Shown here one piece after another: positions 20,900 to 60,500 of a stretch of DNA of 64,000 nucleotides. Both the position numbers and the translations under genes were made by a program. Origin of the DNA: a virus; IMG/VR virus record IMGVR_UViG_3300021375_001810, one strand, 5' to 3'. Every line of letters starts with the position of its first letter. Position 1 is the first letter of the stretch. The notes below the pieces were generated by a model. The model ran no database searches. It worked only from the letters and a program-made list of their open reading frames with translations, and was not told the origin of the DNA.

Positions 20900-22951
20900 A
20901 TGACGAAGTATATCACACACTGGTCAGTAGCATTTATTACTGCCTTTATAATGATAATGTTACACTACGGTGATAGTACTGTAGTGCAAACAGCTCGGCT
21001 CAAGCAATTTGATTTACTTCAACAAACTGACGAGCCCCAACTCTCCCAAGATATTGTAGTAGTCACTATCGACGAACCAGCTATTGAAAAGTACGGTCAA
21101 TGGCCTTGGAGGCGTGATCAGATTGCAGATATAATCTGGAAGCTGCGCGAGGCAGGTGCTGGTATTATTGTAATACCTATTATGTTTTCTGAACCTGATA
21201 GATTAGGTGGAGATAATATTTTATCCGAAGCACTTGTAGATAACGGAGTAGTAATTGCACAAACAGGAACTACCTCTGTTAATAAGAATCCTGTTCCTAG
21301 AGGCGTAGCCAAAATAGGAGATCCTTTACCATACATGTTTGAATGGCCGGGGATGTTAGGACCAATTCCATTGCTAGGTGAAGCGGCAGACGGTGTAGGT
21401 GTTTTAAACACAGCACCAGAAATAGACGGTGTAGTAAGACGTGTTCCGCTCATCATGCGTATCGGTGAAGATACGTATCCTGCTTTAGCAGTGGAAGTAA
21501 TTAGGACAGCGACAGGAAATCCTAGTTATCAAGTAAAAGCGAATCAAGGCGGTATTGAAGCTGTACGTGTTCCGGGTTACCCGATTATCAAAACCGATCC
21601 TAATGCACAAATATGGTTACGTTGGAATAAACAGTTTGAAGAAATTAGTTTAGTAGACGAAGATCAATTTTGGGCTTTAGAAGGTAAGACAGTAATCCTT
21701 GGAATAACCGCAGAAGGAATTGGGGGACTTATTGCAAGTCCAACCGGACCGCAATATAATTACATACCAGCGGCAGTAACCTTACAAACAGTAATGGACG
21801 GAGATCAAATACAACGTCCATTCTGGGCACTCTTAGCAGAAATGATCACAACAGGAATCTTAGGCATAGCCCTTGTGCTAGTTGGACGTTTTGCACCTTA
21901 TTGGTTAGTTGGTACAAAGATAGTTGCATTTAGTGGAGCGTTAGTGTATGGTGCATACTATGCATGGACAAACTACTTGTATCTACTTGACATAACTATG
22001 CCGCTGGCTACTGTAATACTTGTAGGCTTACATTCTGTGTTTAATAGATTTGTAAGTGAATACCTACAAAAGCAAGAAATTAAAAAGCAATTTGCAGGAT
22101 ATGCATCACCTACTATTGTACGTATGTTACAGGAAAATCCTGCACTGATCAAAGACGGTATGAAGAAAGAAGTTAGTATATGTTTTAGTGACCTTAGAGG
22201 TTTTACTCCTTTAGGTGAAAGTTTTGGCGATGACGTTAAAGGCCTAACAAAAATAATGAATGGTTACATGGATGCAATTACACAGCCAGTACTAGACGCC
22301 GACGGTATGATTATTAAGTATATTGGTGATGCTAGTATGCATGTACACAATGCTCCAATTGATGATCCTGATCATCCTAAGAGTGCTGTACAATGTGGAC
22401 TAGATATGTTAAAAGCAGTGGAGAAGTTTAATGAAACATTACAACGAGATAACCGTCCGCCAGTGGGTATGGGTGCTGGCATTAATACTGGTTTGGGGTA
22501 CCTTGGTGAAATGGGTAGCACAAGGAGACATTCGTATGACGTTCTTGGCGACTCAGTATCAACAGCAGCAAGGATTGAATCAAAGTGTAAGGAATACGGG
22601 TGTACCTTACTAGTAGGAGACGCTACATACCAACGTACTAAGTCGGACTTCTTTTACTTAAAAATAGATGACTTAGCAGTAAAAGGAAAAACTGTCGGTA
22701 TAACAATATGGACAGTGTTAGACAATAGACGTCCGGCCTGGCGTGTAGCACAACGTAAACACGAGGATATGCACGAAGCATATAAAGCTCAAAAGTTTGA
22801 CAAAGCAATAGAGTTATGTAATACACTACATAATCATTTTGATGGCAAGATGTCTGACTATTATGATATGTGGATAGAACGTTGCAAATTCCAAAAAACT
22901 CAAGACCTACCTAAAGATTGGAATGGAGTATTCATTGCCACAACAAAATGA
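20900..22951 (+). CDS. CHASE2-domain class III adenylate/guanylate cyclase
   Basis: CHASE2 (IDE..I..YGQWPW.R, DGVVRRVP), 3 TM helices, cyclase FSDLRGFT, IIKYIGDA, GINTG, YDVLGDSVSTAARIE. Confidence 0.95.
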   Translation: MTKYITHWSVAFITAFIMIMLHYGDSTVVQTARLKQFDLLQQTDEPQLSQDIVVVTIDEPAIEKYGQWPWRRDQIADIIWKLREAGAGIIVIPIMFSEPDRLGGDNILSEALVDNGVVIAQTGTTSVNKNPVPRGVAKIGDPLPYMFEWPGMLGPIPLLGEAADGVGVLNTAPEIDGVVRRVPLIMRIGEDTYPALAVEVIRTATGNPSYQVKANQGGIEAVRVPGYPIIKTDPNAQIWLRWNKQFEEISLVDEDQFWALEGKTVILGITAEGIGGLIASPTGPQYNYIPAAVTLQTVMDGDQIQRPFWALLAEMITTGILGIALVLVGRFAPYWLVGTKIVAFSGALVYGAYYAWTNYLYLLDITMPLATVILVGLHSVFNRFVSEYLQKQEIKKQFAGYASPTIVRMLQENPALIKDGMKKEVSICFSDLRGFTPLGESFGDDVKGLTKIMNGYMDAITQPVLDADGMIIKYIGDASMHVHNAPIDDPDHPKSAVQCGLDMLKAVEKFNETLQRDNRPPVGMGAGINTGLGYLGEMGSTRRHSYDVLGDSVSTAARIESKCKEYGCTLLVGDATYQRTKSDFFYLKIDDLAVKGKTVGITIWTVLDNRRPAWRVAQRKHEDMHEAYKAQKFDKAIELCNTLHNHFDGKMSDYYDMWIERCKFQKTQDLPKDWNGVFIATTK

Positions 22952-25528: not shown

Positions 25529-25575
25529 TGGTTGACACAAGAGGTAAGATCAACTATAATAATTTTATATTATAC

Positions 25576-25652
25576 GCGGCTGTAGCTCAGCTGGATAGAG
25601 CATTGGTCTACGAAACCAAGGGTCAGGAGTTCGAATCTCTTCAGCCGCGCCA
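25576..25652 (+). tRNA. tRNA-Arg(ACG)
   Basis: Cloverleaf; anticodon arm TTGGT-CTACGAA-ACCAA; encoded CCA. Confidence 0.95.
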
Positions 25653-34602: not shown

Positions 34603-34795
34603 TATTGAAGTTATGGAAGGACCATATGCAAAGGCTTTGACAGAAGATGTCGAAGGTGTTCTTTATCGAGAAATTAAAACTGTACGTGTAAAAGATGGCA
34701 TGCTAACTGAGTATGTTACAAAACGTAGTTATCATGAAAGTGGCGATTATAATGATACGTCATCAATTTCACCAATTATAAAGGTAGGATCATAA
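34592..34795 (+). CDS. Hypothetical protein
   Basis: 67-aa operonic ORF. Confidence 0.6.
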
Positions 34796-35382
34796 TGCCG
34801 TTAGTACCTATGGTAGTAGAGCAAGAGTCACGTGGCGAACGTTCATATGACATTTATAGCCGATTACTTAAAGACCGTATTGTAATGCTTAATGGTCCAG
34901 TTGAAGATAATGTTGCTAACTTAGTTGTTGCTCAAATGTTATTTTTAGAAAGTGAAAATCCTGATAAGCCTATTAATTTTTATATTAATAGTCCGGGCGG
35001 TGTAATTACAAGTGGCATGAGCATTTATGACACTATGCAATATATCAAATCGCCTGTTCATACTATTGTAATGGGACAAGCATGTTCAATGGGTTCATTC
35101 CTTGCTCAAGCAGGTGAGCCAGGCAAACGTAAGATGTTGCCATATGCTCGTCATATGATTCATCAGCCAAGCGGTGGTTCACGTGGTATGCAAAGTGATA
35201 TTGAAATTCAATATCAAGAAATAACTAAAATGAAAACTATCCTTACTGAGTTGTATGTTAAACATAATTCAAAAGGTAAGACATACGAAGACTTTGAAAG
35301 AGACATGGATCGTGATACATTTATGTCTGCTCAAGAAGCACTTGACTATGGATTAGTTGATCAAATTGTGGAGAAAAAATAA
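34795..35382 (+). CDS. clpP: ATP-dependent Clp protease proteolytic subunit
   Basis: [41 protein letters not shown]. Confidence 0.97.
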
Positions 35383-35567
35383 TGCCTATTCCGGAAAGAG
35401 TAACAGTACCAGAACCTAGAGACCCAAGCAAGAAACATTTTTATATTAGTCTTGTAAAAAGTGGGGTTAGAATTGTAGCAGGAATTGCTCTTTTCATGGG
35501 TGGTTATGCGGCCGCTGGTGTGTTGTTTATCGGAGCAGAACTTTTAGGTATTGCGGAGGAATTATAA
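35382..35567 (+). CDS. Small membrane protein
   Basis: HFYISLVKS..RI, AELLGIAEEL. Confidence 0.65.
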   Translation: MPIPERVTVPEPRDPSKKHFYISLVKSGVRIVAGIALFMGGYAAAGVLFIGAELLGIAEEL

Positions 35568-35878
35568 TGAGTGCAGCCGCTATGAGAGTTGACGAACTAA
35601 AAGAGTTTGTTGCTGAGAAAAAAGGTATTCCAACTGAAGAAGCACTAACTAAAATGTTACAAGAAAATGTTTTAGTAGTAACATTCAATAAACTTGATGG
35701 TGCTGAAAGAGTAATGACATGTACAAAATCGTTCAAAGTCATTCCAGAAGAAAATCACCCTAAAGACAGTAACACGAAACCTAAATTAGGTACTGTCACA
35801 GTTTGGGACACAAACGCTAAAGGTTGGCGTAGTTTCAAATATGATCGTGTAACAAAAGTAGAAGAAGGGAACGTTTAA
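35567..35878 (+). CDS. SH3-fold / WYL_2-like phage protein
   Basis: VTF.K.DG.ER.M.CT, VWD....GWRSF. Confidence 0.75.
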   Translation: MSAAAMRVDELKEFVAEKKGIPTEEALTKMLQENVLVVTFNKLDGAERVMTCTKSFKVIPEENHPKDSNTKPKLGTVTVWDTNAKGWRSFKYDRVTKVEEGNV

Positions 35879-35886
35879 ACTTATTC

Positions 35887-35976
35887 GGAGAGTTGGCTGA
35901 GTGGTCGAAAGCGGCACCCTGCTAAGGTGTTATACGGGCAACTGTATCGAGGGTTCGAATCCCTCACTCTCCGCCA
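35887..35976 (+). tRNA. tRNA-Ser(GCT)
   Basis: Cloverleaf with long variable arm; anticodon loop CTGCTAA; CCA. Confidence 0.95.
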
Positions 35977-35980
35977 AGAT

Positions 35981-36054
35981 GCGGGTGTAGTATAATGGTA
36001 TTATCACAGCCTTCCAAGCTGAGGACAGGGGTTCGATTCCCCTCACCCGCTCCA
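35981..36054 (+). tRNA. tRNA-Gly(TCC)
   Basis: Anticodon loop CTTCCAA; CCA. Confidence 0.95.
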
Positions 36055-36097
36055 TTAACTAGTAGTACAAACTAATAAGTAATCAGAGGTTACATTT

Positions 36098-36388
36098 ATG
36101 AAGATTCGCCCATTACACGATCGAGTGATCGTACGTCGTGAGGAAGAAGAAAAGAAAACAGCAGGTGGTATTTTCCTACCTGGTACAGCACAAGAAAAAC
36201 CTAACCAAGGAGAAGTAATTGCCGTCGGCAGTGGAAGGGTTTTAGAAAACGGAGAAGTTACTCCAGTCGATGTTAATGTCGGTGACATTATTGTATTTGG
36301 TCAATTTGCCGGTAGTGATAAGATTGATGCAGACGGTGAAGAACTAATTATTCTTAGCGAAGGCGATATTAAAGCCGTAATTGAATAG
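36098..36388 (+). CDS. groES: Co-chaperonin GroES
   Basis: [33 protein letters not shown]. Confidence 0.97.
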
Positions 36389-36455
36389 AAAGGAAGCGTA
36401 GAGCCGCTTTAGAAAAGAAGGCAAGTAAGCGTCGATAAATAATTGACGCAATTAT

Positions 36456-36531
36456 GCTCCCGTAGCTCAGCAGGCAGAGCAACTGATTTGTAATCAGTAG
36501 GTCGTTGGTTCGATTCCGACCGGGAGCTCCA
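36456..36531 (+). tRNA. tRNA-Thr(TGT)
   Basis: Anticodon loop TTTGTAA; CCA. Confidence 0.95.
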
Positions 36532-36537
36532 CTTTTT

Positions 36538-36612
36538 TCCGCAGTAGCTCAGTGGTAGAGCAGTTGACTGTTAATCAATTGGTCGTAGGTTCGACCCCTA
36601 CCTGCGGAGCCA
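36538..36612 (+). tRNA. tRNA-Asn(GTT)
   Basis: Anticodon loop CTGTTAA; CCA. Confidence 0.95.
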
Positions 36613-36681
36613 TCTTTTTACTTGACACATCTATTATTAGATGTTATGTTAGTATAGTAGAAACAAAGAAAGGACCCTAAG

Positions 36682-36987
36682 ATGAGAGAATGGGTATACA
36701 ACTGTTGGAATGTAGTAATGGATCACGAAAAGAATCCACTAAGTAATATTCCGGATTTTAGTACACGACATATGATCATGCAGGTACTAGCATGGATGTG
36801 GTGTATTGTGTTTGCTATCATCGTAGGTAGCATGTGGGCAGGCGTCATTAGTATGGTGCTTCATGCATTGTTGCTAGGTGCGATTGCAGTTACAGTAGTA
36901 ACATTTGAAACAGCAAAACGCAATCCAAAAATGTTTGTACGTGATAATATAATTAACTCTCGCGGTGTTGGTGGCGAACATGAGTGA
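36682..36987 (+). CDS. Membrane protein (paralog of 42008..42418)
   Basis: W..VMD...NPL..IPD motif, two TM helices. Confidence 0.75.
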   Translation: MREWVYNCWNVVMDHEKNPLSNIPDFSTRHMIMQVLAWMWCIVFAIIVGSMWAGVISMVLHALLLGAIAVTVVTFETAKRNPKMFVRDNIINSRGVGGEHE

Positions 36988-37306
36988 TTACACTTGCGAC
37001 AACTGGGTAGTTATCAAGATGAAAGGCGATGATCCTCACTATCGTCTTCTTGTTGGAACATCTGGCGGTTACTTAGATGGCGACAGTTGGCGTATGAACA
37101 GCGGTATCACGGGTGTAGAGAAACAGGCATATCTGTATGGATTCTATGGTAGTTCTGGTTCTGTGTATTGGTGCCATCAAGGAGGTTACGGGTTGCGTAT
37201 GAATAACGCCGGCGTGTATAATCAACTTAAAGAACGCTTTGGGGATACAGTTGAACTGATGCCTGAAGATACAGACTGGATGAATATGGATTGGATTATC
37301 ACTTAG
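36980..37306 (+). CDS. Hypothetical phage protein
   Basis: DNWVVIK, GGYLDGDSWRMNSGI, GSSGSVY.C. Confidence 0.75.
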   Translation: MSDYTCDNWVVIKMKGDDPHYRLLVGTSGGYLDGDSWRMNSGITGVEKQAYLYGFYGSSGSVYWCHQGGYGLRMNNAGVYNQLKERFGDTVELMPEDTDWMNMDWIIT

Positions 37307-37309
37307 AGG

Positions 37310-37343
37310 TTGACACAACAAAATAAAGAGTGTATTATAAATA
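37310..37343 (+). promoter_or_regulatory. Composite promoter of the leader/tRNA-Trp transcript
   Basis: TTGACA-17-TATTAT overlapping TATAAATA. Confidence 0.7.
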
Positions 37344-37369
37344 CATAATAAGGAATACGGAATACTAAC

Positions 37370-37429
37370 ATGTCACAGACTAACACAATTTATATTACAA
37401 ATTGGCCACCTACCGGGGGTATGTCTTGA
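37370..37429 (+). CDS. Putative attenuator leader peptide MSQTNTIYITNWPPTGGMS
   Basis: 19-codon ORF between promoter and terminator; single TGG codon at 37403-37405. Confidence 0.6.
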   Translation: MSQTNTIYITNWPPTGGMS

Positions 37430-37457
37430 CGTGACTTTTTAAAAAGTTATTTTAAGC

Positions 37458-37494
37458 AAGCCCCTAGCAGTTAATTCGGTTAGGGGCTTTTTTT
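37458..37494 (+). terminator. Intrinsic terminator with mutually exclusive antiterminator
   Basis: AAGCCCCTAGC/GTTAGGGGCTT stem + T7; the 5' arm can instead pair with GGGGGTATGTCTTGA (37415-37429). Confidence 0.8.
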
Positions 37495-37497
37495 ATA

Positions 37498-37573
37498 AAC
37501 TACACTACGCCTTACTGCAATAAGGTGTTTTTGCAGAGACAGAGGCCTCGAAAGGGCTAAAGATAGTGTAGTT
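37498..37573 (+). ncRNA. Unidentified structured RNA element
   Basis: 10-bp closing stem AACTACACTA/TAGTGTAGTT enclosing two hairpins (one with a GAAA loop). Confidence 0.4.
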
Positions 37574-37588
37574 CATAAAAAAAGTTTT

Positions 37589-37663
37589 ATGTGAGTGGTG
37601 TTAATGGTAGCACAGCGGTCTCCAAAACCGTTAGTCGGGGTTCGAATCCCTGCTCGCATGCCA
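37589..37663 (+). tRNA. tRNA-Trp(CCA)
   Basis: Anticodon arm GCGGT-CTCCAAA-ACCGT; acceptor ATGTGAG/CTCGCAT; G-CCA end. Confidence 0.93.
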
Positions 37664-37713
37664 ATTACCACTTTCTTGACTTTTAATTAAAAAGAAGTAT
37701 AATTATATTATAT

Positions 37714-37789
37714 GGGGCTGTAGCTCAGTTGGGAGAGCGACTGGTTTGCATCCAGTAGGTCGTAGGTTCGATCCCTATCAGCTCCACCA
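37714..37789 (+). tRNA. tRNA-Ala(TGC)
   Basis: G3.U70 acceptor stem; anticodon loop TTTGCAT; CCA; own promoter TTGACT..TATAAT (37676-37703). Confidence 0.95.
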
Positions 37790-37797
37790 TTTTAATT

Positions 37798-38253
37798 ATG
37801 AAAGAATTAGTAGTTTTAGTAGGAGCACTTTTGTTAGCAAGAGTGTTACCTATATTAGATCCAAGTTACGCAAACTTTACCCCATTGTTTGCTGTAGCAA
37901 TATTCTTTCCGTTAACACAAAATAAACTATTATCTTATTCTGTACCGCTAGGAGTAATGTTTTTATCAGACTTATTCTTAGGTTTTAGTGCAATAAATTT
38001 AGTAGTGTATTTTGTGTTAGCACTTATCATATCATTATCACGTAGCATTAACAATTATGTTTATACTAGTATTATTGGTATAGGACTGTGGCATGTTATT
38101 GTAAACTTCTTTGTGTGGTTATCAAATCCTAGTATGTCATTATTACAAACTTATGCAATGGCTATACCATTTGACTTTAAACTGTTACTAAGCACATTAG
38201 TATATGGTACAGCATTGTCATTATTATTACAAAGGAAACATGCTTACACTTAA
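37798..38253 (+). CDS. ECF S-component-like transporter (BtuM/DUF6580-like)
   Basis: NFTPL.A.A.F, P...MFLSD, NF.VW, Y..AIPF; five to six TM helices. Confidence 0.7.
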   Translation: MKELVVLVGALLLARVLPILDPSYANFTPLFAVAIFFPLTQNKLLSYSVPLGVMFLSDLFLGFSAINLVVYFVLALIISLSRSINNYVYTSIIGIGLWHVIVNFFVWLSNPSMSLLQTYAMAIPFDFKLLLSTLVYGTALSLLLQRKHAYT

Positions 38254-40057
38254 AAAAGGAAGAATTAAAAAAGATTTGAAAAGATTATTTAGAATTGACA
38301 ATATTATAACTATGGGCTTAATAGCACTACTGTTTTTTGGATTACGAGCCAATGCAGATGACCATTTAACATACCATGGACACACAGTTGACCCATTAGA
38401 AATTACAATATATGCATACCGTACAGCAAGTGATCACAGAGCAAAAACATACAGTTCAAATGTAATAGAAGCAGACGAACTAGACGATATAGAAGTATCT
38501 GGAGTTGACTTACAAACAACTGGACCTAAAGGACAACAAACAAGTTTGTTTATTAGAGGTACAAATAGCAATCATTCATTAATTGCTATTAACGGTATTA
38601 GTATTAAAGACCATAGTACAATTTCTGGAAATGACGATCTAGGACAAATAGGAATATTAGGGTTTGATCAAATTGAAATTATAAAAGGCCCGGCTGGTTC
38701 ATTGTATGGACCTGATGCTGTTGGAGGTGTAATTAACTTACAATCAGGTATTAATTATAATAATGAATTAAAGTATACACTAGGATCAAACAACCTAAAG
38801 AAACAAAATTTAAGTCTTGGTGAAAGTGTAGGTGCTCATCTTTTTAGCCTTGATATTGAAAAAGAATCTAGTGATAGTATCAGTGTAGCAGAAGGTCCTG
38901 AAACTGATCCATATGTATTTCGTAATTACAACTTTGTATACGAAACATATTTAGACAATGGATATGTGTTAACTGGAAATTTAATTGGTAGAAATAACGA
39001 TAGCAATCTTGACGGAGGTGGTGTTGATGATCTTGACTATACAGGTAATTGGAAATTTAACAATAGACAAATAGCACTAAAGAATAAAACTACTGCGTTT
39101 GTTTATAATAATTCAGAACATAAAAGACAATACACAGATGACGGATTGGTTAGTAACTATAACAGTATTAGCGATACATTTTTAACACATAAAACGTCTA
39201 CAATAAACGAAATAGACTTTACATATGGACTAGAGTACGTAACTTCTAAAGCAGATTTTGAAGTTAATTTGCCATATTATACTTCATTAGTAAATGCAAC
39301 ACGTAATAATACAGGACTATTCTTTGGTAGTGATTATGTAATAGACGGTACTGTTGGGTCGTTTGGTGTAAGATATGACAATGCTAGTAACTTCAAAAAC
39401 GAATGGACATATAGAGTTGGTATAGCAAGAGGCAATTATAGGTTAAGTCATTCAACAGGATTTAAAACTCCTACCGTTTACGAAATGTATGGTATAGATA
39501 ATTACGGTTTTGAAGGCAATCCAAACTTATTTTCTGAAACTAGTAAGTCTTATGAAATTGGATATAATGACGGAGCATTAGATGTTGCGGTGTTTACTAC
39601 TTCAGTTAAGGATACATTGACATACGAAGGTTCAACATATAACAATAAAGGTACAAGTAGACACAATGGTGTAGAAATACAATATACAAATACGTTTGGT
39701 CCAGTAACTCTAGTAAACGGTTATACATTATTGTTTACAGAAGATACAAACGGACAGGATCTTTTGCGTCGACCAAAACATAGTTACAACGGTAATATAT
39801 ATTATGATGTTGACAGTACTACTAGACTAAAACTTAATGCAAGGTATGACGGAAAGTATGACGATATTCACAGTTCGACTTGGCAAAGAACAGAAATGCC
39901 GTCAGTATCACTTTTTGATGTGTCATACCAAAAGTATGTGGACAACATTTTATTTGAAATAAAGGTTGACAACGTAACTAATAAGCGTTATAATAAACCA
40001 CATGGATACAAGCAGACAGGTAGAACATACCTTGCTAGTATTGCATACATATTTTGA
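38240..40057 (+). CDS. btuB: TonB-dependent outer-membrane receptor (BtuB-like)
   Basis: Plug SLFIRGTNSNH.L..ING, IEIIKGP..SLYGPDAVGGVIN; GFKTPT, GNPNL..E.S, LLRRPKH; C-terminal Y...GY...GRTY....YIF. Confidence 0.85.
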   Translation: MLTLKKGRIKKDLKRLFRIDNIITMGLIALLFFGLRANADDHLTYHGHTVDPLEITIYAYRTASDHRAKTYSSNVIEADELDDIEVSGVDLQTTGPKGQQTSLFIRGTNSNHSLIAINGISIKDHSTISGNDDLGQIGILGFDQIEIIKGPAGSLYGPDAVGGVINLQSGINYNNELKYTLGSNNLKKQNLSLGESVGAHLFSLDIEKESSDSISVAEGPETDPYVFRNYNFVYETYLDNGYVLTGNLIGRNNDSNLDGGGVDDLDYTGNWKFNNRQIALKNKTTAFVYNNSEHKRQYTDDGLVSNYNSISDTFLTHKTSTINEIDFTYGLEYVTSKADFEVNLPYYTSLVNATRNNTGLFFGSDYVIDGTVGSFGVRYDNASNFKNEWTYRVGIARGNYRLSHSTGFKTPTVYEMYGIDNYGFEGNPNLFSETSKSYEIGYNDGALDVAVFTTSVKDTLTYEGSTYNNKGTSRHNGVEIQYTNTFGPVTLVNGYTLLFTEDTNGQDLLRRPKHSYNGNIYYDVDSTTRLKLNARYDGKYDDIHSSTWQRTEMPSVSLFDVSYQKYVDNILFEIKVDNVTNKRYNKPHGYKQTGRTYLASIAYIF

Positions 40058-40117
40058 AGGATTTACCTTTAGAATTAATAACCGAAGGTAAGACTTCACA
40101 ATAGAGAGAAAGATAGA

Positions 40118-40315
40118 ATGGTAACAGGAAAAGTAAAATGGTTTGATGCAACTAAAGGATTTGGGTTCATTACCCCAGACGATGGCGGAGCAGATGTATT
40201 TGCACATCACTCAGGCATCAATGGAGATGGATACAAGTCTTTAGCAGAAAACCAAGAAGTTACATTTGAAATAATTGAAGGCCCTAAAGGTCTACAAGCA
40301 ACCAACATCACGTAG
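40118..40315 (+). CDS. cspA: Cold-shock protein
   Basis: GKVKWF...KGFGFI, DVFAH.S, GPKGLQA. Confidence 0.95.
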
Positions 40316-40327
40316 TATAACTTAGTA

Positions 40328-40402
40328 GGCCCGTTCGTCTAGTGGTTAGGACACATGGTTTTCATCCATGCAACAGGAGTTCGATTCTCCTACGGGCTAC
40401 CA
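40328..40402 (+). tRNA. tRNA-Glu(TTC)
   Basis: Anticodon loop TTTTCAT; CCA. Confidence 0.95.
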
Positions 40403-40408
40403 TTTTAC

Positions 40409-40483
40409 GGTCTGGTAGTTAAACGGTTATAATTCCGCCCTGTCACGGCGGCGTTCGGGGTTCGATTCCCCGTCAGACCGCCA
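40409..40483 (+). tRNA. tRNA-Asp(GTC)
   Basis: Anticodon loop CTGTCAC; CCA. Confidence 0.95.
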
Positions 40484-40490
40484 TTAGTGG

Positions 40491-40519
40491 TTGACATTTA
40501 ATCTATTAGAGGTTATAAT
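40491..40519 (+). promoter_or_regulatory. sigma70-like promoter (perfect consensus)
   Basis: TTGACA-17-TATAAT. Confidence 0.8.
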
Positions 40520-40555
40520 GTATATAACAATTAGGCAAATACAAAGAGGCAACAT

Positions 40556-41896
40556 ATGCGAACACAACCACAAGACATAATATCAAAACTTGAACAACAC
40601 AATAGCAGATTGGACAAAGAGGCTATTGTATTTGGTGCAATGGGCGAAGGACTCGACGAGTTCTTTGAAGGTGTTCAAATGGCTCTTGATCCACTAGTAA
40701 CATTTGGCGTTAAGCAAGTACCTGAAAAAGCAGAAAACGAAGTATTATCTGCACAAGGTTGTGAGTGGAAAATATTTAAAGAACTTGCAGATAAACTTAT
40801 TGCAAGAGAACTTACAGGACATGCGGCAAGAGATGCTATTGAACTTGTAATGTCAACAGCAACCGCAGAACAATGGAATGGCTTTTACAGACGTATCTTA
40901 ATTAAGGATTTACGTTGTGGTGTAAGTGAAAAGACTGTAAACAAAGTTGCCAAAAGGTTTAATCCTAAAGGCGAAACAAAATATATGATTCCTACATTCA
41001 CATGTAGTCTAGCACACGACTCTGCTAACCACGAAAAAAAGATGGTTGGTAAAAAGCAAATTGAAATCAAACTAGATGGCGTAAGAGTCATTACTATTAT
41101 CCAAGGCGACAAGGTAGAAATGTTTAGTCGTAACGGTAAACAGTTTCATAACTTTGGACATATTATTGAAGAAATTGAAACTGTAATTAAAGATCACCCT
41201 GTACCTTATCCGCTAGTATTAGATGGAGAGGTAATGAGTGCTAACTTCCAAGATCTTATGAAACAAGTACATCGTAAAGATGGTAAACAAACTACTGATG
41301 CTGTATTGCATTTGTTTGATACTATTCCTTTAGGTTGCTTCAAAGCAGGTAGTTGGGATAAGCCGCAGAGCTTTAGAAGTCAAATTACTAAGCATTGGGT
41401 AGAAGACCATGCAGACGTCTTAGAGCACGTACAAGCGTTGGATTGGGAAGATGTAGACTTAGACACTCCTGAAGGCCAAGAACGCTTTGTAGCGTTAAAT
41501 AAAGCGGCTGTAGACGGTGGTTACGAAGGAGTTATGATTAAGGACGTTGATGCTCCTTATGAATGTAAGCGAACTCATGCATGGCTTAAAGCAAAGCCGT
41601 TCATTGAGGTAACATTAGAGGTAAAGGATGTCGAAGAAGGAACAGGACGAAATGAAGGACGACTTGGTGCATTTGTTTGTGAAGGAATTGATGACGGAAA
41701 GAAAATTAATGTTAATGTCGGCAGTGGCTTTAGTGATGCTAATCGTGACGACTTTTGGAATAGTCGCACTGATATCACAGGTCAACTTGTAGAAGTAAGA
41801 GCTGATGCTGTAACACAAAACCAAGACGGAACTTATAGTTTACGTTTTCCAAGATTTAAAACATTCCGTGGCTTTGAGCCCGGAGAAAAATTATAA
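40556..41896 (+). CDS. ATP-dependent DNA ligase
   Basis: KLDGVR, VLDGE, EGVMIK, WLKAK, SLRFPRF. Confidence 0.95.
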   Translation: MRTQPQDIISKLEQHNSRLDKEAIVFGAMGEGLDEFFEGVQMALDPLVTFGVKQVPEKAENEVLSAQGCEWKIFKELADKLIARELTGHAARDAIELVMSTATAEQWNGFYRRILIKDLRCGVSEKTVNKVAKRFNPKGETKYMIPTFTCSLAHDSANHEKKMVGKKQIEIKLDGVRVITIIQGDKVEMFSRNGKQFHNFGHIIEEIETVIKDHPVPYPLVLDGEVMSANFQDLMKQVHRKDGKQTTDAVLHLFDTIPLGCFKAGSWDKPQSFRSQITKHWVEDHADVLEHVQALDWEDVDLDTPEGQERFVALNKAAVDGGYEGVMIKDVDAPYECKRTHAWLKAKPFIEVTLEVKDVEEGTGRNEGRLGAFVCEGIDDGKKINVNVGSGFSDANRDDFWNSRTDITGQLVEVRADAVTQNQDGTYSLRFPRFKTFRGFEPGEKL

Positions 41897-51590: not shown

Positions 51591-54500
51591 ATGGCACAAG
51601 GTAAACAAGACATTAATATCGGCGTTGAAGGTAATGACGGAACCGGCGATAGTATTAGAGAAGCGTTTAGAAAGGTAAATGATAATTTTACCCAACTATA
51701 TGCTGTATTTGGACAAGGTGGTTCGATATCATTTACTGAATTTAGTGATACTCCAACACTAACACAACTCCAAGAGAATCCTAGTACATTTTCAAGACCT
51801 ACTTTACCAGTAGTAGACGTTGCTGCTGAAGGTAGCAAGTTAGAATTTAGAAAATTAGTTAGTAACAGTTTCCTTGATGCATCTATCGATGATACTGTTA
51901 CATTTAGTTTAACACAAGGCGGTTACATTGTTGTAACAGCGGCTGGCGGACAACTAGAAGAAGACGAAAAACCAAAAATTAATTCAACTGGTGGTGGTAT
52001 TAATGCTTCAGGAAATATTATTGCTGGTATGCCAACCAGTCTTAATGACATTGAAAGTAAATTATCCGTTCTTAATGCTGCACACGATGGTGCAGGATAT
52101 ACAACTGACAGTGTTGCAATATCAAAAGGATTTGCAGATACCAATTATCTAAAGTCAACTGGTGGCGGCACTGGCGCACAAATTAGAGTTCGTACTGAAG
52201 ATCAAATCTTTACAGAAGATTATTCATTCACTATTGATAGTTTTACAGCAGGCGTTGCCAATATTACTGGTAGAACTGTAGACGGAACATTAATTACTGT
52301 TCCAGCAGGTCACGGACTTGATAGTGGTGCTAATGGTTTACCATTTAGATACGAAACTACAGGCACAAGTGCAACAGCAACACCAGCATCAAGTGCCGTT
52401 GCTCAACCACTTACAGATCTAAATCCAGTTTATGTTAGAGTTGCAAGTGCAACATCACTAGAATTTTATGAAAATGCTGAGGCTGCAAAAAATGCTACAG
52501 CAAATAGAAAGATCAGTTTCCAAGCAGGTACTGGTTCGGGAACACAATCACTAGTTGATGCAGAATATCAACCAAGTATACTAGACGGTAAGTTCCTTGC
52601 TAACGAAGCGATGCCTAGAGAGGCTGCACTTAGACGTCAAGGTGACCAAATGGATGGTACACTTTACCTTGACAAGCACCCAGGTGACTTAGCAAACATT
52701 ACAACAGGCTTAGAAGATTTACAAGCCGCTACTAAATTTTATGTAGACAACACAAGTTATGCAAGTAACGTAAACTTGTTTGTTAGTTTACAAGGTGACG
52801 ATAACCAAGTTAATACACCGGCAGGTAAAGAAGGTAGAGCATTAAGTTATGCCTATCGTACACTGAATGCTGCATTACAAAAAGCAGAAGAAATTATTGA
52901 AACAAGTAAGTTGGAACCTGGTCCGTATATGCAGACCATTACTATTAACGATACTACTCCAACTCATGTATTAAGTGGAAACACAAACACACTAGGATTT
53001 AAAGTTCCGGCAACATATAACGGACAACAAACAGCAAACTTTAAAGCATTAATGGATAATAACAAAGCATTTGTTCAAGAAGAAGTTATTGCTTGGACTA
53101 ATGCACAGATTGCAGCAGCTAATGCAGCTGTTAGTTTAGATCCTAATGTTCCAGCAGAAGCAGAATTAATTAAATGGAAAAACTTTACCTACGACGAAGA
53201 TATTTGTAAACGTGATGTAGGATTAATTTACGAAAGTTTAAAACTTGATGTTATTAGTGGTACTAACGCAAACAAACTTTCAAGACAAGCAGGTTTAAGA
53301 TACTATAGTAATGCCAGTGGTGCTATTGCTATTGGGCCACAAAAATCACAAACACTTGCATCAATTGCAAAAGTTGAAGAAATTACTAGACAGTATGTTT
53401 TAACTAATTCGCCATGGCAAGGTGGTGTAGGTAACCCAGGTGTTTATCAAACTGATGTACAGCAGAATGTTGTTGCACCAGGAACGCCAGCACCTGCAGA
53501 TGCTATTGCAAGAGTAGGTGATCTTTTTGATATTATTGAAGGTATTATTAATAACGGTATAAGTGGTGCACCGGTATTACAAGAAGGTTCTGTATACGTA
53601 ATTGAAGTTGACAACGGTGGCAACGGCAACGTATACCAAGGTCAAGCAAGTAACACAGATTTAATTCCAGGTAAGGTTATTACAGGATCTAAGTCAGGTG
53701 CTGTATCAAGAATTGTAAACTATTATAGAGGCGACGAACTAGGCGGAGCAGGCAATGACCAAATTGAACTTCAACTTGAAGAACCAATAGAATTTATTGC
53801 TAGGTCTGATCCGGGTGTTGCTACAGCTGATGATCCAACTTATGAAGCAGGTGATGTACTTGAGTTTGGTAATAAAGTAAGTCAACAAAATATTACAGTA
53901 TTTTTAGAAACTGGTATATTCTACGAAGACTATCCGTTACGTGTTCCAGCAAACGTTTCCATTAAAGGTGACGAATTTAGACGTACACACATTCGACCAA
54001 GAAATCGTGTATCACAGTCAAGATGGGCTAATCAATATTTCCACAGAGACAACTACTTTGATAATATGACACTACACAATCATAGTGTAGAAATTGAAGG
54101 TGAAGTAGAAGTAACATTATCGCAAGCGGTAACTGTTAATATAGGTGATAAGGTTACACAAACTGTTGCAACAGGAACAGCAATTGGTTTTGTACAAGAA
54201 AAGGCAACTAATTCAAACACTATAGTTGTACAATATTTTGACGGGTATGATCCAGTAACTAATAACGGTGTTCCACCAAGCGAAACAGGAAACGGATATG
54301 CTGATGTAGTTCAATTTGATACTGTAGTAAACAACAATATTTCAATTAATAATTCTGTACAAAGCGGAACATACTTAACAACAGCGCCAACACAGTATTC
54401 AAGAGATACAAACTTTGGTTATCATTATGCTCTTGACCCAAGACGCCCAATTAACACTCAGGCGAACAGTGTAGTTAATGCAGGAGGCTATACTAATGCT

Positions 54501-57500
54501 GTTTCTATCTTAGAAAAAAATAGAGATGCTATTGTACAAGAAGTTTTATTATTCTTAGATGAATCGTCAACTAATAATTTAAACAATGGTGGCTTTGGTG
54601 ATTATACTCAAGTTGAACTAACACTAACGGGCAACGTAACATTTAGCAGAGGCGACACAGTTACACAAGCAGGAAGTGGAGTAACTGGTAAAGTAAAAAG
54701 TGATAGCACTGGAAATTCAGTAATTATTGTAGGACCAGATGGTATATTTGATACTAGTGGCGAACTTTCAGTAGGTGGAGTAAGCAAAGGAGCAAATAGT
54801 GTTCCGGCTACAGTACCAGCGGCAGTTGCATTTACATATGGTCCAAAATGTGCAAGAGACTTAGGACTTATTGTTGATGCATTGGCATTTGACTTAGAAA
54901 AAGGTCTTGTTGATCAGTCGCTTGAAGCACAAGGAAGATACTATGCAGGTGCTGTAGAAGTAGGTCAAGAAGTTATAACTTCAGCAGCCATTTTAGAAAT
55001 TGGTAACATTGCACAGGCACTACTTGGTGCATCAGCAACACCAGTTGGAACTCCAAGTGTTCCAAGTTCAAGACAGGCGGCATCAGCATGGGATATTGCA
55101 GTGACAACATCACAACTTGCTGAAGCAGGAACAAGTACTATTGTTTCTGGATTATTAAATATTATAGTATTTGCGTTTAACAGCGAATACAATCCACCTA
55201 AGCACAACAAAGATATGGATGTCTTCTTAATGAATGACGCAACTATCTTACGTAACATGACTGTACAAGGTCATGGTGGATTTATGTGTGTACTTGATCC
55301 AGATGGACAGATACTTACTAAATCACCATACATACAAACAGGATCAAGTTTCTCACAATCAATAAACAAACAAGCATTTAGAGGTGGTATGTTTGTTGAT
55401 GGTTTTGTAAGTAACATGCCATTAGAAATTGTTGATAACATTACAAGTGCAGGTGTTAATGCACCATTTGAAATATTTGTAAGAAGTAGAAGAGATTCTA
55501 AACAAGTTAATAGTAACGGAGTAGGACTTGGATTATTTGCAAGACGTCCTCAACTACCTGCACCATTCTATGTAAACGGTGTACGTTACCAAGTTAATGC
55601 TATTAGAAACTATGACCCTACTAACGGTACAGCAGAACTTATACTTGATAAAAATTCAAACCCAGATGCAAATGATGAAGGACAAGGTTGGATTGGTGGA
55701 GAAAATTATCCAATCGTACTTCAAACAGCTGGTAACAGATCTATGCTTGGTAATGACTTTACGCAAGTTAATGATTTAGGTTACGGACTATTATGTACTA
55801 ACAATGGTATATCTGAAATGGTTAGTATGTTTACATACTACTGTCACGCAGCTTATTATGCAAATAACGGTTCAGAGATTAGATCGTTAAATGGATCAAA
55901 CGCTTATGGTAACTTTGGACTAGTTGCTGCAGGCGGTGACCCGAACGAAGTTGCACAAACTGGTTCATTAGCATTTAATACTTCACAAACAGGTAAAGTA
56001 TATCTGAACCCAAGTGCTAGTGCAAACGCTAACGCATTACAAACATTTATATATGCATATGATACAGATTTTGCTCCTTTACCAGAAGGTGAAATTGATG
56101 TAACATATAACGAAGAAAAAGAGATTGCTAGTATATCAGCAGCTAATCCTGTTGTATTAAATGTTGAAGCTCATGGATTTGTAGAAGGACAACGAGTACT
56201 TGTATCTGACAGTAATATTCCTACTACTGGTGGAGGTGCTAACCCAGGACTAGACGGAATTCGATATGTTGGTCCTAACCCATCAACAGGAACTTTAACA
56301 CTTTACACTGACGCATCATTGACTACAACATTAAACGGTTCGTCATATAATGCAGGTTCGTTAGGTAATAATGCTGCAATACAAGATGCCGGCGGTACAG
56401 CAACATCATCAAGTAGATTTGAAGTTGTATCTGTTACTGATGCACAATCAGCAGACGGTGTTCCGGGCGTTAACGAAGTTAAACTTACTCTAAGTGGAGC
56501 ATTAACTAATGTTCCTTACAACACAAGAGTAACTATTACAGCAGGAACTGGACAGACAGCAACGGCTCCTTTAGGTAGAATAACTAGACCAATTAAAGAT
56601 GGTGTTAATAACAGTACAATTTATGTAACACTACCAGAAAATAGAGATCAGTTTAGTGTTGGAGACACAATATACACAGACGGTACTACTACAAGTAGAA
56701 CTATTGCAAGTATTGAAACTAACTTAGATAAAGCAGGGCGTAAAACTATTATTGGTGTAACAAAAGCAAACCCTGTTGTACTCGAAACTATTGGACATAA
56801 CTTTATAGACGAAGACGCAATTACTATTGTCGACGGTTCAGGAATAACAGAATTAAATGGAACGTATTATGCTAAAGTTAGCACAACTACAGGCGGAACT
56901 ACTAACGATAAACGATATGTAGAACTGTATAGTGATTCAGCATTAACTACACCAGTGAACGGAACAGGATGGGGCGGATCATACACAGCAAGATCAGGTA
57001 AAGTATTTTTAACTGAAATCGGCGGCAACCCACTAATTGGTGAAAACGGTGCTGTATGGAAACTGTCGTTCTCTAACTCAACTAATGACGAGTCAGTAAG
57101 TACAGGCGGCTTAGCAAAGCCATTGTTTGCTGGTGAGTCAATAAGTATTAGAGCAAGAGCCAAATTTATCTTAGACAATGTACAAACTGTTCCAATTAGA
57201 CCTTCAACAGCAGTTGTGTTTGAAGAACAGCCAGAAAATACTTATCGTTCTATTAACTTTGACGTAACTCCAATTAGTACTTTTGATAATGCAGGTGAAG
57301 CAACTTTACCAGATGGTCAAAACATACTTACATTTGATAGTAACTATGATTATATTAGACAAAGAGTTGAGTATAATAACTATAAAGCACAGTTTAAACT
57401 AGTACTTGCAAGTGCTATAACTGGTGCAATAGCAGAAGGATCTGTTGTTAGACAAGGGTCTGCATCTGGTACAATAACAAAATCTGAAGGCATAGGTACA

Positions 57501-60500
57501 GAAGACCTTTATATTAAAGACTGGAACGGTACTGATTTTACTGTAGGCGGAGGAAACATTGAACACGATGCCGCTGGTGACGGAAACTTTAGTAGTGTTG
57601 GCGGACTGGCAGGAAGCGGCGCTGTTAAATTAAGTTACTTAACAACAAACGGATTTAAAGAATCGTTTGGTGGTACACCAGGTGATAGATACATTGCTAT
57701 TCCAGCATTAGGTACAGAGTCTACAGTAAGAATTCAAAATGCAGATATGATATTTGCATGGAAAGACAGAGTACATAAAGTTCTTGCATATCACGATGGA
57801 GCAGGAACAAGTATTGGTTCTATCGGAACAAGAGAAGCAGGAGAACCTAATTCACATGCAACAGGATTTGCGTATTTAGAAATTGACCGTAATCCAGTAA
57901 GTAACAAATATTATGATCCAGACGAAACAGCACCTACTACAGGTATTGCTGATACATTAAATCTTGGCAATGAAAGTGATAATGTTAACCTTGCAATTGG
58001 TGTTCCAGCAGGTGAAGGCGCAGAGATTACTGTTAACATTTCATTATGTAGAGCAACAGGACATGACTTTAGTAACATTGGTACAGGTGGATTTAATACA
58101 TCTAACTATCCAAATATTATCTTTGGACAACCTGCTTCAGATAAGACAGCAATCGTAACAAGTGATCCAACAGTAACAAAAGCACAAGTTTGGGAAAGAA
58201 ACAAAGGGCGTGTGTTCTTTGCATCAACAGACGAAGATGGATTCTTTAGAGTTGGTAAGTTCTTTACAGTTGACCAGGGTACTGGTACAATATCATTTAC
58301 AGCACAAATTAACATCTCAGGTCTAGACGGACTTGGATTTAAAGACGGTGAAATTATTAGTAAGTTTACAAGTAGTTTCACACAGGCAACAGCAGAACTT
58401 AAAAATGTCCCTACAGAAGTTGCTGTAGTAGATTACATTAATAGACGTTTAGGATTTGATGAATTTAACGTAGCAGATCCTGCACCACTTACAACAGTAA
58501 TGAGTGCAACCAATCCGCAATTAACACCAGTAACAGTAGGTGGAGAAACTACACATACACTGAACATGACAAATGGTAGAATTACTTTACTAAAACGTCC
58601 TGTTGCAGATACTGATGCGGCAACCAAAGAATACATTGATAACAGAATATTTGCAAATGATGAATTTGAAGATCTTCGTAACGTAAGTTTTTATCAAACA
58701 GATTACAATAACCAAAATGGTCAAAGTGATTTAATTGTACTAACAGGTAAAAAGAAAATATATGTCAAGTACGTTGCAGGAACTATGTTCTCAGTAAACG
58801 ATGTTATATATGGTGAAGATACTAATAGTGCAGGACGTATTGTTGACATTAGTGATACGTTTAAATTTGATAATGGTGAAAATAGTACAGACACAGCATC
58901 AGGACTTGATGTACAAGTTATAACTTATACTGTTTTACCATTAACAATGGTTAACTTAGATGCAACTGGAACTGTTGCTGTAAGAGGACAACTGTTAAGA
59001 CAACCTTCAACAGGCGCACAAGGTTATGTATTACATCCACAAACTGTAGTTGGATCAGGTAAAACAAGTGCTACACAGATAATTCTAAGAGAAGTAACAG
59101 GATCATTTAATGGTACTGCTATTGAACTTGTAAACAATCCAGGTGGTAGTGAAACTGTAGTTGCAACATCAGCATTGGTTACTAGCACAGCAGCTATTGC
59201 AGACGGTGTAAGTGGAGATCCTATAGACTTCCAAGCAGAAACTATATCAAACGGAAGTGTATCAAGAAATACTACACAAGGTAGAGATGGTCTTGCTGTA
59301 TATCCAATGGTTGAAGTTGCAAACGCAAGTGAAAGCAAAACTGGTAATCCTGGTGATGCATCACGTAGTGATATTAACATAACAGTAACTAGATCAGAAG
59401 ATGCTACAAGTGTTAACTTACAATATCAAGCAGAAAGTTTACTAGATGCAGATGTTAATACAAACGCAGACATACAACAACAAAAACTATTAATGCAAAA
59501 GGCTCCTGTATTACAGGACAGTGACGACTTTGAAGACTTTACTACTAATGGTAGAAGAGTAAGTCAAGCAAACAAAGGTATTGCTGCGTTCTCTGCAGAT
59601 GCATTTGCTGAAGATCAAATATTTGTATTCACAGGATCTATTAGTGCAAACGTAGGCGATATTATAACACAAGGTTCTAGTACTGGTTACATTGATAAAG
59701 TTATTAATGGCACTACTCTTAAAGTTAGAACAAGTGATACATTTGTTACAGGTGGAGCAACAACATGCTTTATTACACCAATAACAACATTTAACTTACC
59801 TGGAAGTGCTAACGCTGTACAACAGACTTCAAGCATAAAAGGAACACCGGTTGATTCAACTAGAACTATTACTACAATAGAAAAAACTGGTTTTGTTAAT
59901 GTTAAAGATAGAGGTATAACATTTGATAAGATTCAAGATATTCCAGAAAAAACTGTAATTGGTAGAGGTGACATTGGTGACCCTGCATACAATACAGACG
60001 GTATACCATACGCTGTTAGTTTTGATCAAATTATTGATTTAGGCGGGGCAATACAAGATAAGGATTTTGCAAACAGTACAATTACAGAAGTTGGCGGTTG
60101 GGTAATACAAACCGAAGGACTTGTTAGTGTTGCAAACGGTGCAACTGTAAGTTCAGGTGGTGTTAGTGCAACTGTACAAGGCGCTGTTACAAGTGAAAAT
60201 AAAATTATTGTTATAAATGCAACTAGTACTTTCCCAGGAACAGGAACACTTGCAGGAGTAACAGCAGACAGTCATGCATCTGCAGCAACTATTGTAAGTG
60301 CAACTCAATTCTCAAGTTCGGGTGAAGCACTAGTTAAAATGGCTGAAGGTGTATATGGTACTACACAGATTACTAAAGCAGGTGAAGGTAACCAATTAGT
60401 ACGTACACTTGATAGTAACGATCAAAACGATCTAACATTTGTTTCAGCAAACACTGAAGGATTTATTAATGTTAAAGGATTGTTAGTTGATAGTCGTAGA

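Follow-up and report, generated by a model that had tools for sequence, protein, structure and literature searches.

In a 64,000-nt stretch of the viral record IMGVR_UViG_3300021375_001810, referred to below as the window and serving as the reference for all coordinates, a phage tRNA-Trp gene lies behind a putative transcription attenuator. On the plus strand, a strong sigma-70 promoter, a Shine-Dalgarno (SD) sequence, a 19-codon open reading frame (ORF) with one UGG codon, and an intrinsic terminator follow each other in this order and precede tRNA-Trp(CCA). Ribosome-mediated, trpL-style attenuation of the tRNA-Trp gene, or of the tRNA cluster which it leads, is considered the probable explanation of this arrangement, with a probability of roughly 0.7. 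In this case tRNA-Trp is probably made only when ribosomes read UGG slowly, and in many relatives the putatively gated unit is the whole Trp-led tRNA cluster. Full-text literature searches did not bring up any tRNA gene under leader-peptide attenuation. Leader-peptide control was found published for amino-acid genes only, and a preliminary description of the locus likewise knew of no tRNA gene regulated in this way.

All components named in the preliminary description, i.e., the promoter, the 19-aa leader, its single TGG, the terminator, and tRNA-Trp(CCA), were located as stated there. Transcription would start near position 37345. The locus comprises the following features:

37310-37338, plus strand: sigma-70-type promoter TTGACA-17 nt-TATTAT, matching the consensus at 11 of 12 positions
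37350-37362, plus strand: SD region (AAGGAAT / CGGAAT) located 5' of the leader start, found by sequence inspection
37370-37429, plus strand: leader ORF of 19 codons plus TGA, MSQTNTIYITNWPPTGGMS, with ATG at 37370 and TGA at 37427-37429
37369-37380, plus strand: 5' strand of helix P0, which contains the start codon and pairs with 37423-37433, from per-sequence folds
37386-37404, plus strand: hairpin P1, whose 3' strand finishes in bases 1-2 of the Trp codon, from folding
37403-37405, plus strand: putative regulatory Trp codon UGG, codon 12 and the sole TGG of the ORF
37405-37411, plus strand: segment 1, C-rich GCCACCT directly 3' of the Trp codon, partner of the G-run in untranslated RNA
37415-37433, plus strand: segment 2, consisting of the G-run (five G, 37415-37419) and TATGTCTTGACGTG, which includes the stop codon
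37432-37449, plus strand: inner 7-bp hairpin TGACTTT/AAAGTTA, followed by a T-rich run and capping the antiterminator stem, from folding
37458-37494, plus strand: intrinsic terminator composed of segment 3 AAGCCCCTA, a 14-nt loop, segment 4 TAGGGGCTT, and a T7 tract
37498-37575, plus strand: multi-branch RNA element of about 77 nt with a 10-bp closing stem (fold -24.4 kcal/mol, z -2.6)
37589-37663, plus strand: tRNA-Trp(CCA) with A1-U72, G73, and an encoded CCA end (ARAGORN; Rfam tRNA, 56 bits)

Segment 2 has alternative potential partners, namely segment 3 on the one hand and segment 1 together with P0 on the other. Its G-run begins at the tenth base past the Trp codon, which confirms the spacing given in the preliminary description. 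The terminator stem extends over 37458-37489 and the T-tract over 37488-37494, with a hairpin energy of -18.0 kcal/mol; a simple terminator scanner missed it due to the loop of 14 nt. The leader RNA of the window is more stable than shuffled sequences (z = -3.2). The spacer between terminator and tRNA-Trp amounts to 94 nt in the window and contains the structured element at 37498-37575. An internal promoter for the tRNA (TTGACG-16-TATTTT, 37426-37453) was considered and rejected: its spacer crosses the inner hairpin, with a loop length that varies among relatives, and its transcript would still include the terminator.

Cassette family and its link to tRNA-Trp

At least 79 distinct viral contig sequences of IMG/VR contain the same cassette; they were collected by two pattern scans of IMG/VR, one anchored on the terminator and the other on the end of the leader ORF, combined with recognition by blastn. 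All family fractions given below refer to the cassettes listed in this way. Since the blastn query ended at base 2 of the tRNA and the second pattern was situated wholly within the leader, the sequence 3' of the terminator was not presupposed by the searches. In all 79 cassettes the first gene past the T-tract is a tRNA-Trp(cca) gene; 77 of these were called by ARAGORN and two, in L147 and L238, are evident by eye and were overlooked by the program.

The spacer between terminator and tRNA-Trp measures 0 nt in 40 of 77 cassettes and at most 2 nt in 6 more. A spacer of 0 nt leaves no room for a promoter, and tRNA-Trp must therefore be transcribed via read-through of this terminator; a strong terminator 0 nt before a promoterless gene would make little sense unless it is regulated. 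Additional tRNA genes are located close behind tRNA-Trp in 58 of the 76 cassettes for which enough sequence was available, with Cys(gca) (39) and Pro(tgg) (31) as the commonest followers, succeeded by Met, Ser, Ile, and Gln. The association is specific to clusters led by tRNA-Trp: a strong hairpin with a T-run is found upstream of 75 of 79 Trp-led clusters versus 7 of 126 clusters on the same contigs that are led by another tRNA. Among these seven exceptions, two are miscalled Trp cassettes and two consist of a gene-end terminator followed by a promoter.

In 70 of 79 cassettes, the start codon is preceded at 23-47 nt (mostly 28-34 nt) by a -35/-10 promoter pair with a 17-nt spacer. Some cassettes occur without a promoter of their own. 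The leader of L205 lies directly 3' of another tRNA-like sequence, and in L196, L233, and L251 the leader is preceded by a conserved hairpin (GGTTGTTGGTA...CCAACC). Judged from this arrangement, the attenuator of these four contigs would lie within a longer transcription unit.

Among 185,579 representative cellular genomes, one per prokaryote species, the anchor pattern had no genuine occurrence; four matches obtained there were rejected as chance occurrences within unrelated sequence. Within the viral contigs, a nearly unchanged cassette precedes a different tRNA-Trp sequence in L023. The two contigs nearest to the window, L081 and L082, whose downstream gene is 99% identical, carry tRNA-Trp without the cassette. 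In both (positions 3640-3800 in L081) it is replaced by a 47-codon ORF with a hydrophobic core, which ends directly before a somewhat different tRNA-Trp. Due to the missing cassette next to near-identical downstream flanks, the cassette can be regarded as an exchangeable module, and attenuator and tRNA-Trp seem to move as one. The 113-aa protein encoded upstream has 168 relatives in IMG/VR, mostly without a nearby tRNA gene.

Structured elements of the type found at 37498-37575 were identified in 19 of 79 cassettes and fall into types A (13), B (2), and C (4). The 10-bp closing stem is AACTACACTA/TAGTGTAGTT, and one hairpin of the element changes in a compensatory manner from GGCC..GGCU to GACC..GGUC. 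The element is no degenerate tRNA according to ARAGORN, which made no call, and to Rfam, where no tRNA match was obtained at E <= 1; the Rfam scan returned no other match for it either. In the 70-nt spacer of L234, the element is replaced by a second mini-ORF with its own SD and two Trp codons, MTDSEYWRWMKSQVE, located directly before tRNA-Trp.

Reading frame and RNA conformers of the leader

The preliminary description had made its reading depend on a leader ORF that is conserved in related phages. An open ORF of 17-24 codons is intact in all 79 cassettes, with the start codons ATG (61) and GTG (18) and the stop codons TGA (58) and TAA (21). UGG occurs in frame in every leader, and its T and first G form invariant alignment columns. 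Except for 12 leaders with a second UGG that is fused to the G-run, all leaders, including that of the window, contain a single UGG (67 of 79). An SD-like purine motif was observed 4-16 nt before the start codon in 72 of 79 cases.

The distance between UGG and the G-run is 7, 10, 13, 16, or 19 nt in 75 of 79 leaders, and indels are multiples of three on both sides of UGG. In the four exceptions, with a distance of 11 or 12 nt, the frame stays open and the stop codon follows 5 or 13 nt further on. Lengths that vary in steps of three are unlike the expectation for an untranslated RNA. In 75 of 79 leaders the stop codon lies 11 nt past the first base of GGGG, which places it inside the G-rich segment. 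Stop codons alternate between TGA and TAA only, and start codons never differ in their T and G, although the bases pairing with these vary. This conservation suggests that the leader ORF is translated. The encoded peptide itself lacks codon-position conservation: summed entropies of 9.9, 11.2, and 10.4 for the three codon positions reveal no excess at the third position, and only one third of the single-base codon differences is synonymous. Since the variation is spread evenly over the codon positions, the amino-acid sequence itself does not appear to be under selection, a pattern that is shared with classical leader peptides and speaks against a functional micropeptide.

RNAalifold on a MAFFT alignment was uninformative, since loop indels misalign the terminator variants; anchored folds of the individual sequences together with column counts were used in its place. 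The full, untranslated leader folds into the terminator state in 79 of 79 cases. For the conformer composed of P0, the pairing of segments 1 and 2 (1:2), the inner hairpin, and the terminator, pairing amounts to 90.9% in the family, and 59 double-change cells were counted versus 20.8 in shuffles (0/500). In helix P0, which connects the start codon to the stop codon, base 1 of the start codon and its partner covary between AU (60) and GC (18) and are never unpaired. Cognate P0 duplexes reach -11.9 kcal/mol versus -9.1 kcal/mol with permuted partners (0/1000), a swap costing 2.7 kcal/mol on average. For P1, 88.7% of the cells are paired and 44 double-change cells were counted versus 21.4 in shuffles (0/500). 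Of the 1:2 pairing, 92.8% of the cells are paired with wobble changes only, and the inner hairpin is paired in about 90% of the cells. The terminator hairpin has a family mean of -18.7 kcal/mol and shows compensatory changes, with CG (38) and UA (30) at one pair and the variants GCCCUGUA/UACAGGGC and GCCUCU/AGAGGC.

A different picture emerges for RNA that ends after the 5' arm of the terminator. Here the antiterminator has the lowest energy in 79 of 79 sequences, with GGGG:CCCC paired (-22.3 kcal/mol in the window, family mean -19.5 kcal/mol). In this conformer, which encloses the inner hairpin, the G-run and the nucleotides after it are paired to positions within the terminator 5' arm and directly preceding it. 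The GGGG of segment 2 is invariant in the family alignment. The pairing around the inner hairpin that the preliminary description had proposed was thereby recovered. Its wider proposal, a trpL-type logic in which the sensed codon matches the gated tRNA, is supported by the tRNA-Trp gene next to all 79 cassettes, by the conserved ORF, SD, and UGG, and by the covariation of the terminator and of the helices that oppose the antiterminator. It had overlooked P0 as a helix between start and stop codon along with two more helices, the element in the 94-nt spacer, and a separate promoter of the tRNA-Ala gene.

Several observations weigh against attenuation. The antiterminator had been described as mutually exclusive with the terminator; it is predicted in every sequence, but only a core of 5-6 bp (GGGGU:GCCCC) excludes the terminator, the remainder being compatible with it. 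For the antiterminator-specific pairs no covariation was observed, since observed counts equal those in shuffles, and the middle helix of the antiterminator is hardly more stable with its cognate partners than with permuted ones (-2.9 versus -2.8 kcal/mol, 209/1000). Folding both conformers, as the preliminary description had suggested, showed that each of them forms in 79 of 79 cases, but even when segment 1 is masked, the mean advantage of the terminator conformer amounts to 6.6 kcal/mol, and in 76 of 79 leaders this conformer has the lowest energy. Read-through would thus require a kinetic trap. The invariant GGGG could instead reflect pairing with segment 1 or Gly codons. Furthermore, a single regulatory codon in 67 of 79 leaders, that of the window included, predicts a low sensitivity, and the cassette is dispensable, as L081 and L082 carry tRNA-Trp without it.

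The equilibrium preference for the terminator and the missing covariation of the antiterminator also fit a stand-alone mini-gene or insulator, in which a small peptide gene with its own promoter ends at a leaky ordinary terminator and read-through is constitutive, with no codon sensing. Promoter, SD, ORF, and terminator indeed make up a complete unit. This explanation is nevertheless very unlikely, because the peptide lacks codon-position conservation and only the frame, UGG, and the RNA-pairing bases are kept. In addition, the unit is always situated directly before tRNA-Trp, usually at 0-2 nt, and not before other tRNA clusters, and the G-run able to capture the terminator arm is invariant.

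The peptide could also act by itself, as in TnaC, if a nascent W-(C)-P motif arrests the ribosome on free tryptophan or another small molecule and thereby sets the RNA fold. Throughout the family, Pro or Cys comes next after Trp, mostly as P or C-P, and the slow PP motif occurs in 50 of 79 leaders. The latter number also argues against the sensitivity to EF-P that had been proposed for the WPP motif of the window, which is not a feature of the family. The C-rich bases after UGG double as segment 1, which accounts for them without a role of the peptide. Due to this, to a distance of 5 to 12 residues between Trp and stop, and to the otherwise unconserved peptide, a nascent-peptide sensor is regarded as improbable. 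TnaC works with Rho and not with an intrinsic terminator, whereas the terminator observed here is intrinsic.

Least probable is a sensor made of RNA only, with the three-way junction of P0, P1, and 1:2 as a riboswitch or T-box-like aptamer for tryptophan or tRNA-Trp and with an incidental ORF: a three-way junction with a covarying closing helix and a subsequent terminator is the typical architecture of an OFF-riboswitch, and the invariant UGG sits at the helix junction, where it could be read by an anticodon, but indels on either side of UGG are limited to multiples of three, the SD is conserved, the T and G of the start codon persist with varying partners, the stop codon stays TGA or TAA, the junction of about 65 nt is far below the size of a T-box Stem I plus antiterminator, and an Rfam scan of 35000-41000 on both strands (E <= 1) returned neither a Trp_leader match nor a T-box match nor any other match for the leader.

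Considering the codons next to UGG, attenuation might respond to more than one tRNA. Where a Cys codon is located beside UGG, tRNA-Cys belongs to the putatively gated cluster in 39 of 62 cases, versus 0 of 14 without such a codon. A naive Fisher test gives p of about 9e-6, but on the tree only 4 supported independent contrasts were found (sign test p = 0.5), and the association is not significant once relatedness is taken into account. The base substitution by which Asn becomes Cys before UGG is compensated within hairpin P1. A sensor of several codons that match the gated tRNAs is a suggestive lead. A further step would be to regard the leader as a rewritable sensor of decoding speed, whose control codons (Cys-Trp-Pro) co-evolve with the gated tRNAs and by which large phages replace tRNAs that were depleted by host shut-off or by an anticodon nuclease; this extension is tentative, and we would rather bet against it than for it.

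Proposed mechanism and phage context

For trpL-style attenuation, the following course of events is proposed. Host RNA polymerase would initiate at the sigma-70 promoter, and a ribosome would load onto the 19-codon leader. If UGG is decoded fast, the ribosome would reach the stop codon inside segment 2 and cover the G-run as well as the 5' half of the inner hairpin. Segment 3 could then pair with segment 4 only, and a transcript of about 149 nt would end in the T-tract before the tRNA. If charged tRNA-Trp is scarce, the ribosome would wait with UGG in its A site, melt P1, and mask segment 1, whereas the G-run, 7-19 nt further 3', would stay free at the mRNA entry or beyond it. The free G-run would capture the CCCC of the terminator 5' arm once this is made, and the polymerase would continue into tRNA-Trp and the tRNA genes behind it, whereupon RNase P would remove the leader. 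This capture would rely on the order of synthesis, segment 3 being taken before segment 4 exists.

In the absence of a ribosome, P0, P1, and 1:2 would lock segment 2, and the terminator would form by default. The circuit would represent a negative feedback, as tRNA-Trp would end its own synthesis when UGG is read fast again. The inner hairpin and the U-rich run before segment 3 are a plausible pause site for synchronising polymerase and ribosome. The footprint of bacterial ribosomes is the basis for assigning segments as covered or free, and the shortest spacer between UGG and the G-run, 7 nt, is close to the smallest distance that permits a structure at the mRNA entry when UGG occupies the A site. 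We infer the translation of this leader, the footprints on it, the kinetic action of the antiterminator, the pausing, and the physiological trigger, for which starvation, host shut-off, and an anticodon nuclease are candidates.

As a one-strand block with nine tRNA genes and several PHROG families, the window derives from a large, uncultured marine phage. A megablast search with 37100-37900 against cultured phage records gave matches at the tRNA level only, and the DNA ligase as tblastn query reached no more than 34.5% identity, which indicates a phage without a cultured relative. Within the window tRNA-Trp is the sole tRNA gene behind such a putative gate. The tRNA-Ala gene directly 3' of it (region 37676-37789) has its own consensus-like promoter, TTGACT-16-TATAAT at 37676-37703, and tRNA-Arg(acg) is located right behind a plain TTGACA-17-TATAAT promoter (25531-25652).

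Genes of cellular type are present in the window as well, namely those for a CHASE2-adenylate/guanylate cyclase, ClpP, GroES, a TonB-dependent receptor with plug domain, and a CspA-type cold-shock protein, together with a 3885-codon ORF (20900-22951, 34795-35382, 36098-36388, 38204-40057, 40118-40315, and 51591-63248). An ATP-dependent ligase is also encoded. Before the cold-shock gene, 39996-40293 shows a weak match to the Rfam cspA thermoregulator that remains below threshold (28 bits versus a gathering score of 78).

Why phages carry tRNA genes and when these are used is a long-running question, for which codon-usage compensation, host shut-off, and escape from tRNA-cleaving defences have been proposed as answers. 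If attenuation holds true, tRNA expression is demand-driven and subject to negative feedback in at least some phages, and classic attenuation extends from amino-acid genes to adaptor molecules. A further benefit would be a compact reporter for how fast a selected codon is decoded, host-independent and about 150 nt in length, whose promoter and ribosome-binding site seem suitable for E. coli. If the idea of a rewritable sensor is true in addition, the cassette would act as a counter-defence circuit, and the timing of tRNA gene use in phages would be explained.

Comparison with known systems

The trpL class (his, leu, thr, ilv, pheA) comprises leader-peptide attenuators with two or more regulatory codons; the terminated trpL transcript of E. 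coli has a length of 141 nt, and the trp attenuator is understood to work by the order of synthesis (PMC1183508). The cassette resembles trpL in its short leader ORF with a regulatory codon, in its four segments, for which mutually exclusive 1:2, 2:3, and 3:4 pairings are predicted, in an intrinsic terminator with U-tract, in a predicted default termination when untranslated, in a stop codon within segment 2, and in a terminated transcript of similar length (about 149 nt). Of the characters of this class, an ORF with ribosome-binding site, a cognate codon, an intrinsic terminator, and a 1:2-type sequestering structure are present here; two or more regulatory codons and a biosynthetic target operon are absent. 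Unlike in trpL, the gated gene would be a phage tRNA gene or tRNA cluster instead of an amino-acid biosynthetic operon, and its product would feed back on decoding directly. Further differences are the mostly single UGG, the extra helix between start and stop codon, the core of only 5-6 bp shared by antiterminator and terminator, and the missing match to Rfam Trp_leader.

As in a T-box, the choice between antiterminator and terminator would be set by the state of one tRNA, known by its codon. A T-box binds uncharged tRNA directly, is untranslated, and extends over 200-300 nt with the T-box sequence, whereas the cassette comprises about 150 nt and is constrained in frame. Compared with TnaC, the spacing from Trp to stop is variable, the peptide unconserved, and the terminator intrinsic. 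With the multivalent attenuators of ilvGMEDA (Ile/Leu/Val) and thr (Thr/Ile) the cassette may share control codons for several products of the gated unit, here the adjacent Cys-Trp-Pro, and tRNA-Trp, -Pro, and -Cys are the commonest putatively gated genes; unlike there, the match between codons and products is just suggestive.

The pheST attenuator of E. coli and the Trp-codon leader of B. subtilis rtpA (anti-TRAP) sense tRNA charging via a leader peptide. Similar to these, leader-peptide sensing would here control a component of translation or charging and not a biosynthetic enzyme. Their targets are cellular protein genes, whereas the target of the cassette would be the viral tRNA gene itself.

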